Shown: positions 8,852-15,655 of the stretch, one piece after another
Position numbering within the stretch: the stretch's first letter is position 1
Layout: the number at the start of each line of letters is the position of its first letter
Origin: Xylanibacter ruminicola 23
GTDB lineage: Bacteria; Bacteroidota; Bacteroidia; Bacteroidales; Bacteroidaceae
DNA: 32,000 bases
Assembly (NCBI RefSeq): GCF_000025925.1
Contig: NC_014033.1
Location: 600,001 to 632,000, forward strand
Direction of reading: 5' to 3'
Translations under genes and position numbers: made by a program
The notes under the pieces: model-generated
Told to the model about the DNA's origin: nothing
The model's database searches: none
The model's input: the letters and a program-made list of their open reading frames with translations, nothing else

Positions 8852-8859
8852 TATATTTG
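8852..8859 (+). promoter_or_regulatory. -7 box TATATTTG, likely promoter of the TlpA-to-lipoprotein operon
   Basis: Matches TAnnTTTG and is followed by GCACC as at the other promoters here. It lies 82 nt upstream of ATG 8941. Confidence 0.4.
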
Positions 8860-8940
8860 CACCATCTATTAACTGAAATATTTAAAACTAGTAATTATAA
8901 AAAAGTGTTTTGAGGAACATTTTTTCTAGCAAATTCCAAT

Positions 8941-9498
8941 ATGAGAAAGAATCTATTAACGATGCTGGCTGCGCTGCTGATGACTGCCTGTGGCGGGTGT
9001 TCAGCGACTGACGATAAGGTTGACGGTGACGAGGTAATGGATGCCGACAGCCTTGTGGTGGGCGACCAGTTGCCAGCGTTTGAGGTGACGATGAACGACG
9101 GTTCGGTGGTGCGCACAGCCGACCTCAAAGGTCAGCCCTCAGTGGTGGTGCTGTTTTCGGTGGATTGTCCTGACTGCCGCCATGAACTGCCCGAAGTGCA
9201 AAAGCTGTGGGATAGGAGTCGCCAAGGCGAACTGACTGGCGACGGCAAGCCCTTGCCCATCGTGCTTATCGCCCGTAAGAACCTGACAGAGGATATTGAG
9301 CCCTTCTGGAAGTTTGCCGAGCTCACGATGCCTTATTCGCCTCAGCCCGACCGCAAAGTCTATTCGCGTTTCGCTCCCTCGCGCATCCCTCGCATTTACA
9401 TCAGCGATGCCAGCGCCACCATCCGTGTGGCCTATGCCGATACCGGCATGCCCACCGCTGAGACCCTCGCAGAAGAAATATCCCGTTTGAATGAATAA
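8941..9498 (+). CDS. TlpA-like thioredoxin-fold thiol-disulfide oxidoreductase, lipoprotein
   Basis: 185 aa. It has a lipobox LLMTAC, and LPAFEVTMNDGSVVRTADLKGQPSVVVLFSVDCPDCRHELPEVQKLW carries the CxxC active site in the usual redoxin context. Confidence 0.8.
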   Translation: MRKNLLTMLAALLMTACGGCSATDDKVDGDEVMDADSLVVGDQLPAFEVTMNDGSVVRTADLKGQPSVVVLFSVDCPDCRHELPEVQKLWDRSRQGELTGDGKPLPIVLIARKNLTEDIEPFWKFAELTMPYSPQPDRKVYSRFAPSRIPRIYISDASATIRVAYADTGMPTAETLAEEISRLNE

Positions 9499-9502
9499 TC
9501 CA

Positions 9503-10549
9503 ATGAAAAAGAGTCTGAGCTTTATATTATTGGCCGGCATGTTGCTGACGTGCTGCACCAAGGAGGGAGATACTATCTATCTGCCCAATCCTGACGAGGA
9601 ACAGCCCAGTACGGCGCCGCTGGTGACGGTCATCTACGACGTCAACGGCCTGGGCGACCGTTCGTATAATGATAAAATTTTCCGCGGCATAGAGAGTGCG
9701 GCCAAGAAGCATGGCTTCAGAACCCTCCAGCTGGTGCCCGACAGCTATGAACAGGGACTGGCCTATCTGGAAACCGTGTTCCGTCAGATGGAAAGCGCTC
9801 AGGACACGGTGCGCCGTCTGTTCATCGCCCCATGCCAAGGCTACGATGAGTTTATCCGCAAGAACAACCGCCGCCTGGAGCGTAACCCCTATGCCGACCT
9901 GCTCTATCTGGAAACATCGACCCCCCTTGAGGGCAAGGGCTCCACATTCTACATCGACTACTACGGCGCGATGTACATGGGGGGCTATCTGTGTCAGGAC
10001 TACTATTCTTCAAAAGTGATATTGCTGGTACTGGCAAACCCCTACACGCAGTGGGTCGTTGAAGCCGGAAAAGGCTTTGTGGATGGTTTTAACTCCATGA
10101 CGTCGAAGTATAATAAGACCTTGAAGACACATTATCTGAGCAATGAGCCCGGTGGGGGATTCCAGCTGGCCGACACCACTGCGCTGCGCATCTACCAAGA
10201 GGCGAAGGTCAATGAAACAGATAATGTGTGCGTCGTGCCCATCTGTGGCGGTGCGATGAATGCCTTTTTCCGTATCTTACCCAAATTTTCCTATTATGTT
10301 GGTGTTGACGACTATGTCTTCTCCCCATTGATTAATAATTATATCAACGTCATTAAGAACATTGACACGGTAATGGAATACTATATCGACCAGTGGGCAG
10401 ATGGCACCCTCCCCAAGCACCGGACGTTCGGGCTGAGAGATGGCGCAACAGACATCTATTTGTCGCAATTTCACTACATGAGTCGGGAGGATCATCAAGA
10501 ACTGCGCCAAGAAGCCATCAGAAAGGAGGAGGAACGGTATGAGAAGTAA
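9503..10549 (+). CDS. BMP/PnrA-like periplasmic-binding-fold lipoprotein
   Basis: MKKSLSFILLAGMLLTCC signal and lipobox. VTVIYDVNGLGDRSYNDKIFRGIESAAKKHG resembles the BMP-family N-terminal motif (..GGIGDKSFND...G...A). An alternative in-frame ATG at 9491 overlaps the upstream stop. Confidence 0.6.
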   Translation: MKKSLSFILLAGMLLTCCTKEGDTIYLPNPDEEQPSTAPLVTVIYDVNGLGDRSYNDKIFRGIESAAKKHGFRTLQLVPDSYEQGLAYLETVFRQMESAQDTVRRLFIAPCQGYDEFIRKNNRRLERNPYADLLYLETSTPLEGKGSTFYIDYYGAMYMGGYLCQDYYSSKVILLVLANPYTQWVVEAGKGFVDGFNSMTSKYNKTLKTHYLSNEPGGGFQLADTTALRIYQEAKVNETDNVCVVPICGGAMNAFFRILPKFSYYVGVDDYVFSPLINNYINVIKNIDTVMEYYIDQWADGTLPKHRTFGLRDGATDIYLSQFHYMSREDHQELRQEAIRKEEERYEK

Positions 10550-13654: not shown

Positions 13655-14278
13655 ATGAAAAAGAACATTTTATGGATGCTAGCCGCCATCCTTATTTGCG
13701 GCCTGACAGTGACAACAATGAGCGCCTGCTCGAGTGATGATGATGACAAGACCGAGGGTAAGACCGAGGTGACGATGATGTATATAGTGAAGGTTACTGA
13801 CGACGTGCTGAAGGTGGCCGACGTGGAAGTGAACTACATCGACCAGACGGGCGCAAAGAAGAAAGAGAAACTGGGCACTACCGAGTGGAAGAAGACCTTC
13901 TCCACCAATACCCTGCCACTCACCGAGGGCGTTTGGGCAAAGATGACACCAAAGACAAACATCGGTACAGGCAGCTACTCGTTGCAGGTGACCACGGCAG
14001 CAGGCTACCAGGCCAAGCTGGCCAATGGCAAGACCGTTGCCGACGGCTACGGCAGCGACCCGGAGGCAAAGCCCACTACCGCGCAGACTGCCGGAGAGAT
14101 CGCCGACTGGTGCAGCCAGAGTCCTACGATAGGCATCGCTATCGACCAGACAGGTTATAGCAAGCAGCAGCATGTAGATTTCGGAGGAAATTTCTTAGGT
14201 GGATTCTTTGACAAAAAAGATGCTTGCGAATGGTTGATGGAATTATTTGGTGCAGATAAAGATTATTGCTATGAATAA
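13655..14278 (+). CDS. Lipoprotein paralog 2 (type B body, 28-aa tail with 2 Cys)
   Basis: It has the same signal peptide. The body is near-identical to the 14328 gene up to HVDFGGN (Asn codon 14189-14191). The tail is unique. Confidence 0.8.
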   Translation: MKKNILWMLAAILICGLTVTTMSACSSDDDDKTEGKTEVTMMYIVKVTDDVLKVADVEVNYIDQTGAKKKEKLGTTEWKKTFSTNTLPLTEGVWAKMTPKTNIGTGSYSLQVTTAAGYQAKLANGKTVADGYGSDPEAKPTTAQTAGEIADWCSQSPTIGIAIDQTGYSKQQHVDFGGNFLGGFFDKKDACEWLMELFGADKDYCYE

Positions 14279-14327
14279 TATACTCCTAAGATATGATAAA
14301 TGACACAAAAGTTATAGTAACATTACA

Positions 14328-14948
14328 ATGAAAAAGAACATTTTATGGATACTAGCCGCCATCCTTATTTGCGGCCTGACAGTGACAACGCTGAGCGCCT
14401 GCTCAAGTGATGATGATGACAAGACCGAGGGTAAGACCGAGGTGACGATGATGTATATAGTGAAGGTTACTGACGACGTGCTGAAGGTGGCCGACGTGGA
14501 AGTGAACTACATCGACCAGACGGGCGCAAAGAAGAAAGAGAAACTGGGCACTACCGAGTGGAAGAAGACCTTCTCTACCAATACCCTGCCAGTCACCGAG
14601 GGCGTTTGGGCAAAGATGACACCCAAGACAAACATCGGTACAGGCAGCTATTCGTTGCAGGTGACCACGGCAGCAGGCTATCAGGCTAAGCTGGCCAGTG
14701 GCAAGACCATCGCCGACGGCTACGGCAGCGACCCGGAGGCAAAGCCCACTACCGCGCAGACTGCCGGAGAGATCGCCGACTGGTGCAGCCAGAGTCCTAC
14801 GATAGGCATCGCTATCGACCAGACAGGTTATAGCAAGCAGCAGCATGTAGATTTCGGAGGGAATCGTGATGCTGTAATTGATATGCATGCAGTTTGTATC
14901 TGGTTTTTTGGATTGTTTGGCGAACCTCCCTCATTTTGCGATAAATGA
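14328..14948 (+). CDS. Lipoprotein paralog 3 (type B body, 27-aa tail with 2 Cys)
   Basis: As for paralog 2, with the Asn codon at 14862-14864. The tail is unique. Confidence 0.8.
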   Translation: MKKNILWILAAILICGLTVTTLSACSSDDDDKTEGKTEVTMMYIVKVTDDVLKVADVEVNYIDQTGAKKKEKLGTTEWKKTFSTNTLPVTEGVWAKMTPKTNIGTGSYSLQVTTAAGYQAKLASGKTIADGYGSDPEAKPTTAQTAGEIADWCSQSPTIGIAIDQTGYSKQQHVDFGGNRDAVIDMHAVCIWFFGLFGEPPSFCDK

Positions 14949-14977
14949 CACAAAAGTTATATTATAATTATTATTAA

Positions 14978-15655
14978 ATGAAAAAGAACATTTTATGGAT
15001 GTTGACAGGCTTGGCCGCCATCCTTATTTGCGGCCTTACAGTGACAACGCTGAGCGCCTGCTCGAGTGATGACGACAAAAACGACAAGGCCGATGCGACT
15101 GTCGAGAAAGAGATTATGTACGCTGTACAGATATCCGACGATGTGCTTAAAGTGGCCAATGTAGAAGTGAACTATGTGGACCAGACGGGCGCCAAGAAGA
15201 AGGAGGCACTTTCTTCGACACAGTGGAAAAAGTCACAGAAGTTGAATAACACGTCGCCATTTGCCCAGGGAATCTGGGTCAAGATCACTCCGAAAACAAA
15301 TGTCGCCTCCGGCACTTACCAGCTGAAGGTTACAACAGGTGTGGCTTGCAAGGCAACCCTTGCAAACGGGAATACCATCATGGATTTCTCGGGCAACGAC
15401 CCAGAAGCAGCGCCTGTCACGGCGCAGACTGCAGAAGAAATCGCCGACTGGTGTTCCAAGAGCCCTACTGGCGGTCTGCTTGTAGATCCATCGGGTTATT
15501 GCAAACAGCAGCATGTGGACTTTGGAGGAAATGCCAGGGATACAGATTTAGCTATTGTTGATTGTTATGCCTGTAGATTCTTTGAATATATATTTGGTGG
15601 TGATATTTCTTACTGTGAGGAACTTTGTAAAGACTGTTTTTTTTGTAATTTATAA
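14978..15655 (+). CDS. Lipoprotein paralog 4 (type A body, 40-aa tail with 6 Cys)
   Basis: As for paralog 1, with a 5-residue insertion in the signal peptide (MLTGLAAIL). The Asn codon is at 15530-15532. The tail is unique. Confidence 0.8.
   Translation: MKKNILWMLTGLAAILICGLTVTTLSACSSDDDKNDKADATVEKEIMYAVQISDDVLKVANVEVNYVDQTGAKKKEALSSTQWKKSQKLNNTSPFAQGIWVKITPKTNVASGTYQLKVTTGVACKATLANGNTIMDFSGNDPEAAPVTAQTAEEIADWCSKSPTGGLLVDPSGYCKQQHVDFGGNARDTDLAIVDCYACRFFEYIFGGDISYCEELCKDCFFCNL

Follow-up and report, generated by a model that had tools for sequence, protein, structure and literature searches.

Legumain owes its Asn specificity to Arg44, His45, Ser216 and Asp231 and is normally kept inactive by a C-terminal domain that plugs the S1 pocket with some of its residues (PMC4357240). 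It is also inhibited by the substrate-like loops of cystatin E/M and of the mycocypins (PMC9579014). In the Bacteroidota a clan CD peptidase, PorU, is a surface sortase that removes a C-terminal signal and transfers the cargo onto A-LPS (PMC4560394, PMC8545088), and the published export signals of the Bacteroidota type are S(D/E)3 and K-(D/E)2 (PMC6222051). Plant asparaginyl endopeptidases free disulfide-stapled CXXXC hairpin peptides from larger carrier precursors (PMC8106488), which is the precedent for the release of stapled tails proposed here. The locus described below is a conserved Bacteroidales lipoprotein module, found here in a rumen Prevotella/Xylanibacter genome, and a comparable system was not found in the literature.

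The window, that is the whole stretch of 32,000 nt that was analysed, contains seven plus-strand ORFs at 8941-15655, in the order TlpA-like, Bmp-like, PBP::C13 and four paralogs that end with ...VDFGGN and a variable tail. The intergenic gaps are -11 to +49 nt. The seven same-strand lipoprotein genes with short gaps of the earlier note were confirmed where it had placed them, and all seven encoded proteins have lipobox-like signal peptides.

8852-8859, plus strand: candidate -7 box of the Bacteroidetes type, TATATTTG (TAnnTTTG), 82 nt 5' of the first start codon.
8941-9498, plus strand: TlpA-like thioredoxin-fold lipoprotein, 185 aa, Pfam AhpC-TSA and Redoxin, lipobox Cys at residue 17.
9491-10549, plus strand: Bmp-like lipoprotein, 352 aa, directly 5' of the peptidase gene.
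10539-12938, plus strand: PBP::C13 lipoprotein, 799 aa, with a type I PBP at about aa 45-500 and C13 at aa 534-785 (nt 12138-12893).
12980-13642, plus strand: paralog 1, 220 aa, beta-sandwich body, Asn182 codon 13523-13525, tail 13526-13639 = NDDMPENVAALCGLCELFSWLWVFDDMPEDFCDKPCGR, 4 Cys.
13655-14278, plus strand: paralog 2, 207 aa, Asn179 codon 14189-14191, tail 14192-14275 = FLGGFFDKKDACEWLMELFGADKDYCYE, 2 Cys.
14328-14948, plus strand: paralog 3, 206 aa, Asn179 codon 14862-14864, tail 14865-14945 = RDAVIDMHAVCIWFFGLFGEPPSFCDK, 2 Cys.
14978-15655, plus strand: paralog 4, 225 aa, Asn185 codon 15530-15532, tail 15533-15652 = ARDTDLAIVDCYACRFFEYIFGGDISYCEELCKDCFFCNL, 6 Cys.

There is no further plus-strand copy of TAnnTTTG from 8859 up to 15589. 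The 8-mer alone is weak evidence of a promoter because the window has 33 matches where 21 are expected. In the window, genes for an immunity protein, a transporter or a receptor kinase are absent.

The Pfam Peptidase_C13 match (8.2e-41) covers aa 534-785, and the catalytic codons are 12483-12485 (His649) and 12636-12638 (Cys700), as the earlier note correctly had them. Mouse legumain (4noj) matches the domain at 2.7e-27 with the catalytic and S1 residues aligned. The equivalents of Arg44, His45, Ser216 and Asp231 are R549, H550, S727 and D742; these four and the catalytic His and Cys are unchanged in 48 homologs. In the AF2 model (pLDDT 80.5) the legumain fold is confirmed by Foldseek, with human legumain matching the C-terminal half at TM 0.84-0.86, and the N-terminal half is matched by LivK-type binding proteins and the GABA-B Venus flytrap at TM 0.68-0.72 (LivK 0.72). 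The bacterial enzyme is closer to legumain than to GPI8 (2.8e-18). It stops directly after the catalytic domain and the C-terminal LSAM pro-domain of legumain is absent.

The four paralogs are mutually 57-83% identical, with ...KQQHVDFGGN invariant in all, and belong to a family with 432 matches in which a Pfam domain was not found. Each type I body contains one extra invariant Cys, so that the total number of Cys is usually odd. In the AF2 model of paralog 4 (overall pTM 0.72) the body at 43-178 has pLDDT of about 90 and the helix-turn-helix tail at 191-218 has 79-90; the junction at 183-188 (below 50) comes out as disordered in the model and links the confident beta-sandwich to the confident helical hairpin. 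After the lipidation site the paralogs start with CSSDDD and the peptidase with CKTEDD. These acidic runs resemble the published S(D/E)3 and K-(D/E)2 signals (PMC6222051) and suggest export of the carriers to the surface or to vesicles. A surface location is not assured, because acidic signals are not universal and some relatives start with CQKNGGK or CKKDKS.

Among 191 unique family sequences the junction is [FWY]GGN in 173 and G[DNAE]N in four, and [FW]GG followed by a residue other than Asn does not occur. Of the last two junction residues, Gly and Asn, the Asn varies less. Positions P1' and P2' are highly variable, so any recognition must come from the conserved body side. No member of the family terminates at the junction, i.e. 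the tail is always kept. A second body subfamily has WGGN followed by a conserved, hydrophilic, Cys-free 21-mer (consensus agdDsTQgTGIsxdGATgdNR), a conserved tail that the idea of variable effectors leaves unexplained. In some relatives the same junction leads into an entire domain, Lcl_C/DUF1566 or beta-helix, which fits a design of carrier, junction and cargo. The WGGN subfamily and the whole-domain fusions together show that the junction is of wider importance than the Cys-rich peptides. We consider it probable that the junction Asn is a target of the C13 enzyme, whatever the chemistry.

The tails behave as independent modules shuffled between bodies. The nucleotide identity falls exactly at the Asn codon, from 97.4% in the bodies of paralogs 2 and 3 to 46% in their tails and in another pair from 94.8% to 44%. 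The tails fall into 35 discrete classes; identity is 87% for tails of one class and 24% for tails of different classes. On bodies at least 90% identical, different tail classes occur in 1144 pairs, and 21 pairs have the same class on bodies less than 70% identical. The class of paralog 3 recurs in many metagenome sequences. In paralogs 1-4 the tails are 38, 28, 27 and 40 aa long, with 4, 2, 2 and 6 Cys. Of 112 unique tails five have no Cys, one has 1, 58 have 2, eight have 3, 36 have 4, one has 5 and three have 6. The even number of Cys previously ascribed to the tails is thus a strong tendency (91% of the Cys-containing tails) and no rule. A strong negative charge (median net charge -5) sets the tails apart from most membrane-active antimicrobial peptides. 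The cassette-like variation is the one observation in favour of toxins, signals or decoys as products; none of the tails matches a peptide family in Pfam or NCBIfam.

The gene set recurs in other genomes. Six genome loci were found through the paralog family. Five of them include genes for TlpA, the Bmp-like protein and PBP::C13, with the order permuted, as the proposed co-occurrence predicts, and the sixth ends at a contig edge. A peptidase search gave 79 metagenome loci, where the genes nearby mostly encode lipoproteins with the junction. Of 89 peptidase genes, 45 have 800 nt or more of flank on both sides, and an [F/W]GGN lipoprotein was found within 2.5 kb in 34-35 of these; about 10 have other lipoproteins and no junction lipoprotein within that distance. 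The Bmp-like gene is directly 5' of PBP::C13 in all 84 testable of the 89 cases. It had been treated as peripheral and is instead the most tightly linked partner. Its identity is only indirectly supported: Pfam gives nothing for the window protein and the PDB profile match has E=0.15, while PF02608 (Bmp) is present in homologs with 49-55% identity, which JGI names 'basic membrane protein A'. The body also has three very distant relatives (profile E of about 1e-9 to 1e-17), with the junctions LSWQNN, LPWQNN and LSWKAN, that adjoin Bmp or Bmp-PBP::C13 too. The core of the module is the body lipoprotein, Bmp and PBP::C13.

The TlpA-like protein is accessory. It has AhpC-TSA (2.9e-09) and Redoxin (2.8e-07) matches above threshold and a CPDC active site at residues 76-79 (nt 9166-9177); its NCBIfam matches to ResA, DsbE and TlpA are all below their own cut-offs, and the closest PDB relative is 5um7 (4e-11). 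Of 30 loci with Cys-rich tails 16 have the gene, and none of the 24 loci whose tails are all Cys-free has it (Fisher p=9e-6, kinship ignored). TlpA, formerly counted in the core set, is thus found only where tails contain Cys, and is missing from 14 of those 30 loci.

A mechanism can be proposed from these patterns. The carriers, and probably the peptidase too, would be lipidated and exported to the cell surface or to vesicles. At the outer surface the C13 domain would recognise the non-prime residues ...V-D-F-G-G-N and attack the bond after the invariant Asn in the flexible linker. Hydrolysis, the presumed outcome, would detach the C-terminal cargo from the body, which would keep its lipid anchor. 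In the window the cargo is a set of four helical hairpins (27-40 aa), all acidic and rich in aromatic residues and each different from the others. One to three disulfide staples are predicted per hairpin, and making or mending them would be the task of the accessory TlpA-like oxidoreductase. Conditions in the rumen are strongly reducing, which may be unfavourable to disulfides outside the cell. The likely functional output would be the freed peptides, acting outside the cell as effectors (signal or antagonist) that are specific to a strain and pass between strains as cassettes. Every comparative check that was run agrees with the enzyme-substrate idea of the earlier note, but what it said of TlpA, of the Bmp-like protein and of the products needs change. 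The complete reading, cleavage by C13 at the junction Asn with release of functional peptides, is put forward tentatively, at slightly less than an even chance.

A reading without any processing is unlikely. The paralogs would then be stable full-length surface lipoproteins, with the variable hairpins as exposed tips for adhesion, phage or immune evasion or ligand capture, and [F/W]GGN would cap the beta-sandwich. PBP::C13 and Bmp would work as a pair in nutrient acquisition, digesting proteins from outside and binding what results, with the paralogs as complex partners only. An aromatic-x-x-Asn ending is found across the superfamily (470 representatives), many members having a very short tail or none, and as a superfamily-wide feature it could be a structural domain cap. 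The tails are modelled as confident helices, and the pTM of paralog 4 would permit packing on the body. Rumen Prevotella are proteolytic, the PBP and Bmp folds are those of classical nutrient binders, and about one fifth of the peptidase loci are without a nearby junction lipoprotein. A structural cap, however, leaves unexplained why the Asn is more invariant than the Gly before it and why the motif is within a segment modelled as disordered, and unrelated tails on nearly identical bodies argue against specific body-tail packing. The link to an Asn-specific peptidase also persists in body relatives at the detection limit, and restriction to Asn would be odd for a digestive protease of general use.

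Transpeptidation, as in PorU or GPI8, is unlikely as well. The C13 domain would form an acyl-enzyme with the junction Asn of the body, discard the tail, which would be a sorting signal, and move the body to an amine acceptor. Possible acceptors are a glycolipid of the surface, a further protein, or a ligand that the fused PBP domain or the Bmp-like protein presents. In that case the functional product would be the modified body and not the tail. The C13 family includes dedicated transamidases and ligases, and GPI8 and plant peptide asparaginyl ligases are among the PDB matches; PorU shows that a surface sortase of clan CD already exists in the Bacteroidota (PMC4560394, PMC8545088). Recognition on the conserved side fits, the body being the part that an acyl-enzyme would hold, and the type II tails are conserved as a recognition signal would be. 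Two binding-protein folds obligatorily linked to the enzyme could supply the acceptor. GPI attachment signals consist of a hydrophilic spacer and then a hydrophobic segment, and the type I tails, with a hydrophilic spacer (median 11 aa) before a hydrophobic segment, recall them. A second anchor would have no obvious use, however, since a lipid at the N-terminus already holds the bodies, and a discarded signal needs no conserved Cys pairs, 35 conserved classes, cassette exchange or dedicated oxidoreductase. Entire folded domains behind the same junction also speak against a discarded signal, the enzyme is nearer legumain than GPI8, and no acceptor can be named.

It is very improbable that the small lipoproteins regulate the peptidase in trans, as substrate-mimic inhibitors or pro-domain substitutes whose junction loop fills the active site until an activating signal arrives, e.g. 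a ligand on the PBP or Bmp domains: the enzyme and the small lipoprotein are tightly co-encoded, the enzyme is without the LSAM domain that blocks the S1 pocket in legumain (PMC4357240), and loops of cystatin E/M and of mycocypins inhibit legumain (PDB matches 4n6o and 8ae5; PMC9579014), but an inhibitor would need neither four paralogs whose tails are unrelated nor 35 classes of tail nor cargo domains, and the flexible Gly-Gly-Asn linker resembles a substrate and not a rigid canonical inhibitor loop.

Two further features stand 3' of the paralog array and are additions to the earlier description.

15875-16108, plus strand: C13 gene remnant, the 3' end of a second copy, with 15914-15964 similar to 12444-12495 and 15966-16095 similar to 12802-12931.
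16128-17036, plus strand: fifth lipoprotein, 302 aa, starting with CSNDDSP and without a GGN junction.

In the close relative L010, with a peptidase 95% identical, a second and intact Bmp-C13 pair is found 3' of the paralog array. The family of the fifth lipoprotein is encoded directly behind intact C13 genes at the loci L014, L016 and L031.

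The seven open reading frames on the + strand at 8941-15655 of the window are separated by intergenic distances of -11 to +49 nt and encode, in order, a TlpA-like protein, a Bmp-like protein, a peptidase in which a type I periplasmic-binding-protein domain is fused to a legumain-type C13 domain (PBP::C13), and four paralogous lipoproteins (paralogs 1-4). The reading frames, the domain matches, the structure of paralogs and tails and the catalytic codons (His649, 12483-12485; Cys700, 12636-12638) all check out, and the description of this gene set in an earlier note is therefore correct. 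A Bacteroidetes-type -7 box, TATATTTG, is found at 8852-8859 and the next copy on the + strand only at 15589; the 8-mer is mildly enriched in the window, with 33 matches against 21 expected. Scans of the window for sigma-70 promoters and terminators were set aside as uninformative for Bacteroidota.

The paralogs are 57-83% identical. The conserved N-terminal part of each, the body, ends in an invariant ...KQQHVDFGGN, and the segment after the Asn of this junction, the tail, is variable. The tails of paralogs 1, 2, 3 and 4 comprise 38, 28, 27 and 40 amino acids with 4, 2, 2 and 6 Cys respectively and are unrelated to each other. The nucleotide identity of paralogs 2 and 3 is 97.4% in the body and 46% in the tail, that of paralogs 1 and 4 is 94.8% and 44%, and the BLAST alignments of both pairs end exactly at the Asn codon (14191 and 13525). 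The 148 distinct combinations of body and tail gave 35 tail classes, with 87% identity within and 24% between classes. Different classes were found on bodies at least 90% identical in 1144 pairs, and the same class on bodies less than 70% identical in 21 pairs. The related locus L010, with a peptidase 95% identical to that of the window, carries a different tail array.

The tails are 20-50 amino acids long (median 29) and follow one plan, an acidic spacer (median 11 amino acids) and then a segment rich in aromatic residues and flanked by Cys. They are strongly anionic, with a median net charge of -5. The number of Cys is even in 97 of 107 Cys-containing tails and three in 8 tails, and the commonest patterns among unique tails are C-x13-C (50), C-x3-C-x9-C-x-C (14) and C-x2-C-x16-C-x3-C (10). 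In the AlphaFold2 model of paralog 4 (pLDDT 76.8, pTM 0.72) the body, residues 43-178, is a beta-sandwich with pLDDT about 90, the junction at 183-188 falls below 50, and the tail forms a helix-turn-helix (helices 191-205 and 210-218, pLDDT 79-90). Placed on this predicted helix-turn-helix, the common Cys patterns suggest one or two disulfide staples. Searched against PDB, the paralog model had no significant structural match; MmpS5 and PLAT-like sandwiches came closest (E 2e-3, TM below 0.4). The modelled body is a generic beta-sandwich whose fold offers no functional lead.

The tails alone did not match any entry of Pfam or NCBIfam at E values up to 10, and no known RiPP or bacteriocin precursor family was found among the tails or the whole proteins. 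Weak matches to a chryseobasin-related RiPP (NCBIfam) and to DUF4972 (Pfam) were rejected, as they covered the signal peptide only and were below the cut-offs. No exporter or immunity gene is present within 8000-19400 of the window. Variable C-termini, as in polymorphic toxins, are present; a toxin domain and interleaved small genes were not found.

The junction is highly conserved. [FWY]GGN is found in 173 of 191 unique family sequences and G[D/N/A/E]N in four, and in none of the 191 does [FW]GG precede anything but Asn, which makes the Asn more constrained than the glycines. The positions after the Asn are highly variable, with 14 different residues at P1', so that any recognition must come from the body side. 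Two types of body were distinguished. Type I bodies, the kind found in the window, end in ...VDFGGN followed by a variable tail, contain one further invariant Cys (A-x-W-C) and are usually encoded 3' of the peptidase gene. Type II bodies end in ...[IV][TA]WGGN followed by a conserved, hydrophilic, Cys-free 21-mer (consensus agdDsTQgTGIsxdGATgdNR), and the gene is usually located just upstream of the Bmp-like gene. The junction can also precede a whole folded domain and not just a peptide: in the loci L023 (6852-7982) and L024 (521-1660) and in the homologous protein P0242, a type I body with GGN is fused to a domain of about 190 amino acids related to Lcl_C/DUF1566, and in P0242 this domain matches Lcl_C (DUF1566, lectin-like). 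In another homolog, P0373, a beta-helix follows the same junction.

A profile search of 1.8 billion representatives (E<=1e-3) placed the bodies in a superfamily of 470 representatives at 50% clustering, Bacteroidales lipoproteins of about 175-200 amino acids that belong to no Pfam family. Many members end in aromatic-x-x-Asn with a short tail or none. A third family of small lipoproteins, of about 170-184 amino acids and ending in ...RYIPYDNWPDNGFLSDLLDWLKK, recurs beside Bmp-C13 genes (L003 15512-16024, L010 17919-18431, L077 5717-6253 and L087 7349-7903), sometimes in the usual position of the type II body. Its Asn precedes a short amphipathic C-terminal helix.

The third product of the operon, 799 amino acids, matches Pfam Peptidase_C13 (PF01650) at residues 534-785 with 8.2e-41 and 140.7 bits (cut-off 22.8). 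Profile alignments gave 2.7e-27 to mouse legumain and 2.8e-18 to GPI8/PIGK PDB chains. The segments NYRH, SGHG, E-P-C, EQSFA and CDRFS pair with the legumain segments that hold Arg44, His45, His148, Cys189, Ser216 and Asp231, and the catalytic dyad (SGH649G and EPC700) is in the correct order relative to the legumain His and Cys and invariant in 48 homologs. The Asn specificity of legumain has been ascribed to Arg44, His45, Ser216 and Asp231 (PMC4357240). The equivalents of these S1-pocket residues are R549, H550, S727 and D742, which together with H649 and C700 are invariant across the 48 homologs, down to 56% identity. By its legumain S1 residues PBP::C13 is a predicted Asn-specific enzyme. 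In the distant relative in L093 the S1 Asp position seems to be Asn, as judged by eye.

The AlphaFold2 model of the whole protein, built on the alignment of 48 homologs, has a pLDDT of 80.5. According to Foldseek its C-terminal half has the caspase-hemoglobinase fold and superposes on human legumain (4n6o/7fqi) with TM 0.84-0.86 (target TM) and 29% identity, and its N-terminal half has the two-lobe Venus-flytrap fold of type I binding proteins (LivK / ANF receptor), with LivK 3td9 at TM 0.72, 4mlc/4q6b at 0.68 and GABA-B 4f12, each with E about 1e-11. The type I PBP matches in Pfam are sub-threshold for the window protein and on record for homologs. The protein ends about 14 residues past the C13 domain and lacks the LSAM pro-domain, its extra domain being the N-terminal PBP. 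The regulation of the bacterial enzyme must therefore differ from that of legumain; as a speculation, the fused binding domain or the Bmp-like partner might regulate it. Plant asparaginyl enzymes are 20-29% identical to the peptidase, which is too low to map the S2/S1' ligase determinants with confidence.

A genome scan with the paralog family identified six loci and a metagenome scan with the peptidase 79 more. Open reading frames were called in all loci and classified with HMMER. Positions 7539-15938 of the window are identical to a stretch of a 3.58-Mb contig in NCBI assembly GCA_019973335.1. The relatives are from rumen Prevotellaceae; the cultured Xylanibacter ruminicola D31d (L004) is among them, as are numerous metagenomes from the rumen. 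In five of the six genome loci the TlpA-like, Bmp-like and PBP::C13 genes lie beside the paralog; the sixth ends at the contig edge. The order is permuted, with paralog-TlpA-Bmp-C13, Bmp-C13-paralog-TlpA and Bmp-C13-TlpA-paralog all represented. The Bmp-like gene is immediately upstream of the peptidase gene in all 84 cases that are not at a contig edge, and of 45 peptidase genes with flanks of 800 nt or more on either side, 34-35 have a lipoprotein with the junction motif within 2.5 kb. The remaining peptidase genes mostly have other small lipoproteins nearby. Distant body relatives with usable flanks adjoin Bmp or Bmp-PBP::C13 genes in three of three loci:

L093: body ending in LPWQNN with a tail of 12 aa, beside Bmp/PBP::C13 genes
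L095: two bodies ending in LSWQNN with tails of 6 or 10 aa, beside Bmp/PBP::C13 genes
L092: body ending in LSWKAN followed by a beta-helix, then the start of a Bmp-like gene

Four further distant relatives were left out because their contigs, of 1-2 kb, gave too little flanking sequence. As even distant relatives keep the linkage, body lipoprotein, Bmp-like protein and PBP::C13 form an old and stable triad. In the distant modules of L093 (2330-8146) and L095 (39-7417) a conserved protein of about 265 amino acids, apparently with one hydrophobic segment, is encoded directly after the body gene. A LytTR-type response regulator lies directly upstream in L093 and a 735-aa MACPF lipoprotein upstream in L095; these neighbours, single cases each, hint at signalling or antagonism.

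The co-conservation expected of the full gene set holds for the triad, and for TlpA in part of the loci. The TlpA-like gene is present in 16 of 30 loci with tails of at least two Cys and in none of 24 loci with Cys-free tails (Fisher p=9e-6, an optimistic value since the loci are related strains). This distribution marks TlpA as an accessory tied to Cys-containing tails; it fits a thiol-disulfide role, and the module does not require the gene. The product is a thioredoxin-fold protein with a lipoprotein signal, Pfam matches to AhpC-TSA and Redoxin above the cut-offs and CPDC at residues 76-79; the best solved relative is 5um7 (4e-11). It scored 17-31 bits with the NCBIfam equivalogs TlpA, ResA, DsbE and StoA, far under their cut-offs of 123-359, and is therefore a thioredoxin-fold protein of the broad class and not TlpA proper. 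Metal binding by CxxC...CxxxC tails, prompted by a weak, sub-cut-off match of this protein to SCO1/SenC (E 0.0014), was set aside, since the commonest tail class contains just two Cys.

The second product (352 aa) itself gave no significant match in Pfam or PDB. The Bmp-family chain 4pev in PDB reached only E=0.15-0.25, and a search of that database with a profile built from 29 Bmp-like sequences stayed short of significance (E=0.15). PF02608 (Bmp) and the JGI name 'basic membrane protein A' are on record for homologs of 49-55% identity, and the partners in L093 and L095 also match PF02608, partly weakly. As the PDB profile match was not significant, the 'BMP' label rests on precomputed Pfam matches of homologs.

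An S(D/E)3 or K-(D/E)2 motif after the lipid-modified Cys directs Bacteroidota lipoproteins to the surface or vesicles (PMC6222051). In the paralogs (LSAC|SSDDD) and the peptidase the lipobox Cys begins CSSDDD and CKTEDD, which match this motif, and the CGGCSATDD of the TlpA-like and CTKEGD of the Bmp-like protein fit less clearly. From these acidic runs the reaction in the window strain may occur on the cell surface. The run is missing in some relatives of the module lipoproteins. Co-variation of the acidic signals between peptidase and neighbours (25 pairs parsed, rho 0.31, p 0.13) was dropped as an argument.

The deep linkage to a peptidase predicted to be Asn-specific, the placing of the invariant Asn within a flexible linker, the confinement of recognition to the conserved side and the C-terminal modules, always present yet freely exchanged, together point to action of the C13 domain on the junction of the lipoproteins encoded beside it. 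This is the simplest reading, and probably the correct one. Beside these observations it is rather unlikely that the lipoproteins are left unprocessed, with GGN as a structural cap and a peptidase that serves nutrition.

If the acyl-enzyme is resolved by water, the tail would be released and the body would end in Asn. Hydrolysis with the tail as functional product is favoured because within their discrete classes the tails are kept by purifying selection, because they move as exchangeable cassettes and have a predicted fold of their own, and because the Cys-containing ones recruit an oxidoreductase. Resolution by an amine would instead transfer the body in a sortase-, GPI8- or PorU-like transpeptidation. 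Such class conservation, cassette exchange, predicted fold and oxidoreductase are not expected of a discarded tail signal, and we regard transpeptidation as unlikely. That the small lipoproteins replace a pro-domain or inhibitor in trans is highly improbable.

Hydrolysis could be part of a dedicated Bacteroidales route for extracellular peptides via lipoprotein tails, a tentative joint reading that we consider possible rather than probable. The peptide would be made as the C-terminal tail of a lipoprotein and would cross the outer membrane by the lipoprotein surface-export pathway. The TlpA-like oxidoreductase would staple the tail, and the ligand-responsive PBP-legumain fusion would clip it at the invariant Gly-Gly-Asn. 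The freed anionic hairpin peptides would serve as strain-specific signals or antagonists in the rumen. The cassette-like allele classes recall, by analogy, pherotypes and bacteriocin types. Most antimicrobial peptides, unlike the tails, are not anionic, and no sensor, exporter or immunity gene is found in the window. No current model accounts for the conserved, Cys-free tail of type II bodies or for the obligatory Bmp-like and PBP partners.

By analogy, the closest precedent is the maturation of CXXXC hairpin peptides from storage-protein precursors by plant asparaginyl endopeptidases (AEPs). Vicilin-buried peptides are CXXXC...CXXXC helical hairpins that are buried in such precursors and matured by AEP (PMC8106488), and their pattern resembles the window-type 4-Cys tails, C-x2/3-C ... 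C-x1/3-C on a predicted helix-turn-helix. In these systems, in PawS-derived peptides and cyclotides, and in the module, a C13 enzyme is paired with a conserved Asx bordering a small disulfide-stapled peptide (stapled by prediction in the module) that rides on a larger, unrelated protein. The plant systems are eukaryotic and vacuolar, whereas the module is bacterial, built of lipoproteins and encodes enzyme and substrate in one operon. Plant AEPs have an LSAM pro-domain and require acid activation; the peptidase of the module lacks a pro-domain and carries a PBP domain at its N-terminus. Asx sites usually border the plant peptides at either end, but the tail of the module is the extreme C-terminus, so one cut would suffice and head-to-tail cyclisation via the tail's own Asn would not be possible.

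Within the phylum, PorU of Porphyromonas is the surface C-terminal signal peptidase and sortase of type IX secretion (PMC4560394, PMC8545088). It shares peptidase clan CD and the removal of a C-terminal segment with the predicted reaction, but belongs to family C25 rather than C13. Its substrates carry a conserved CTD of about 80 amino acids and use the T9SS, whereas those of the module are lipoproteins with tails of 6-50 amino acids that are variable in one subfamily; PorU hands its cargo to A-LPS, and no acceptor is known for the module. GPI8/PIGK is of family C13 and cuts a C-terminal signal after a small omega residue, often Asn. The GPI8 signal has a hydrophilic spacer and then a hydrophobic stretch after this residue, and the enzyme works in a eukaryotic multi-subunit membrane complex with a GPI acceptor; the module has no other subunits and its enzyme is nearer legumain.

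The double-glycine leaders of class II bacteriocins and competence pheromones, processed by C39 peptidase-ABC exporters, likewise have Gly-Gly beside the cut site and a conserved N-terminal part followed by a variable C-terminal peptide in discrete classes swapped between strains. The module differs in that the 'leader' is a folded lipoprotein of about 155 amino acids, the predicted cut is after Asn and not Gly-Gly, the protease is C13 and not C39, and the window contains no ABC exporter, immunity gene or two-component sensor. Polymorphic toxins share the conserved N-terminal part, the sharp recombination boundary, the C-terminal cassettes and the tandem paralogs, but the tails of the module are 20-50 amino acids without a recognisable toxin domain, and there are no cognate immunity genes downstream.

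In a literature search that covered some, not all, journals, neither a bacterial C13/legumain with defined natural substrates nor this module was found described, and a search of the same scope on Prevotella lipoprotein bacteriocins and related topics did not find the module either. The parts belong to known kinds (legumain, thioredoxin-fold oxidoreductase, binding proteins, lipoproteins, protease-matured peptides); what is new is their assembly. In the cultured Xylanibacter ruminicola it offers a candidate pair of enzyme and substrate for which the catalytic residues and the predicted scissile bond can be named. If cleavage occurs, it would show how diderm Bacteroidota release small peptides without a dedicated exporter and would reveal a large hidden peptide repertoire in a dominant rumen genus, with 35 tail classes in a small sample. 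Transpeptidation would give the phylum a second sortase-like system, one that does not depend on type IX secretion. With either chemistry the body family and its obligatory Bmp-like and PBP::C13 partners merit a family definition. If the dedicated peptide route is true, the enzyme would be the first legumain from a bacterium whose natural substrates are known, the system a bacterial counterpart of plant AEP maturation, and the tails a new class of ribosomal peptides with a new export logic. Plant asparaginyl ligases are useful tools for protein engineering, and an Asn-specific bacterial enzyme that reads a short GGN motif could serve the same field.

Several further features surround the operon in the window:

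1907-4194: ImpB/MucB-type Y-family polymerase gene (- strand) and chloramphenicol-acetyltransferase-family gene
8056-8622: gene whose product (188 aa) matches LPD3 (large polyvalent protein-associated domain 3) below threshold
8086-8144, 8737-8796 and 19369-19410: repeat of 40-60 nt, GGGACWTTTTTTGTTGCAARACGTTTTTTCTTGC...
15875-16108: second C13 gene, a degenerate 3' remnant with an internal deletion
16128-17036: fifth lipoprotein, 302 aa, beginning CSNDDSP..., with no GGN junction
17554-19348: HipB-like HTH gene overlapping a HipA-family kinase gene (toxin-antitoxin pair)

A direct repeat of 2699 bp, 99.2% identical, is located at 5394-8092 and 19438-22136, each copy with a gene for an 844-aa GH51-type alpha-L-arabinofuranosidase. 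The copies flank a segment of 11.3 kb that contains the LPD3-like gene, the C13 operon, the fifth lipoprotein and HipB/HipA, an arrangement that suggests a duplication, or an insertion through recombination. Copies of the GGGACWTTTTTTGTTGCAARACGTTTTTTCTTGC repeat mark the inner ends of the large repeat and also precede the operon; part of the sequence can fold into a short hairpin. The LPD3-like gene is located shortly before the operon, where GC is low (0.34); the LPD3 domain is typical of mobile elements. The HipB/HipA pair is directly downstream of the module. L010, a close relative, has an intact second Bmp-C13 pair after the paralog array, so that most of a second module appears to have been lost from the window strain. 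Relatives of the fifth lipoprotein are found directly 3' of intact C13 genes in L014, L016 and L031; the protein may be a further partner of the peptidase or represent another class of its substrates. From 25000 to 32000 the GC content falls from about 0.52 to 0.32-0.35 and the large open reading frames (311, 329 and 985 aa) have no Pfam match; this part may be a foreign island. At the other end of the window, the Y-family polymerase and chloramphenicol-acetyltransferase-family genes are upstream of the first arabinofuranosidase copy.
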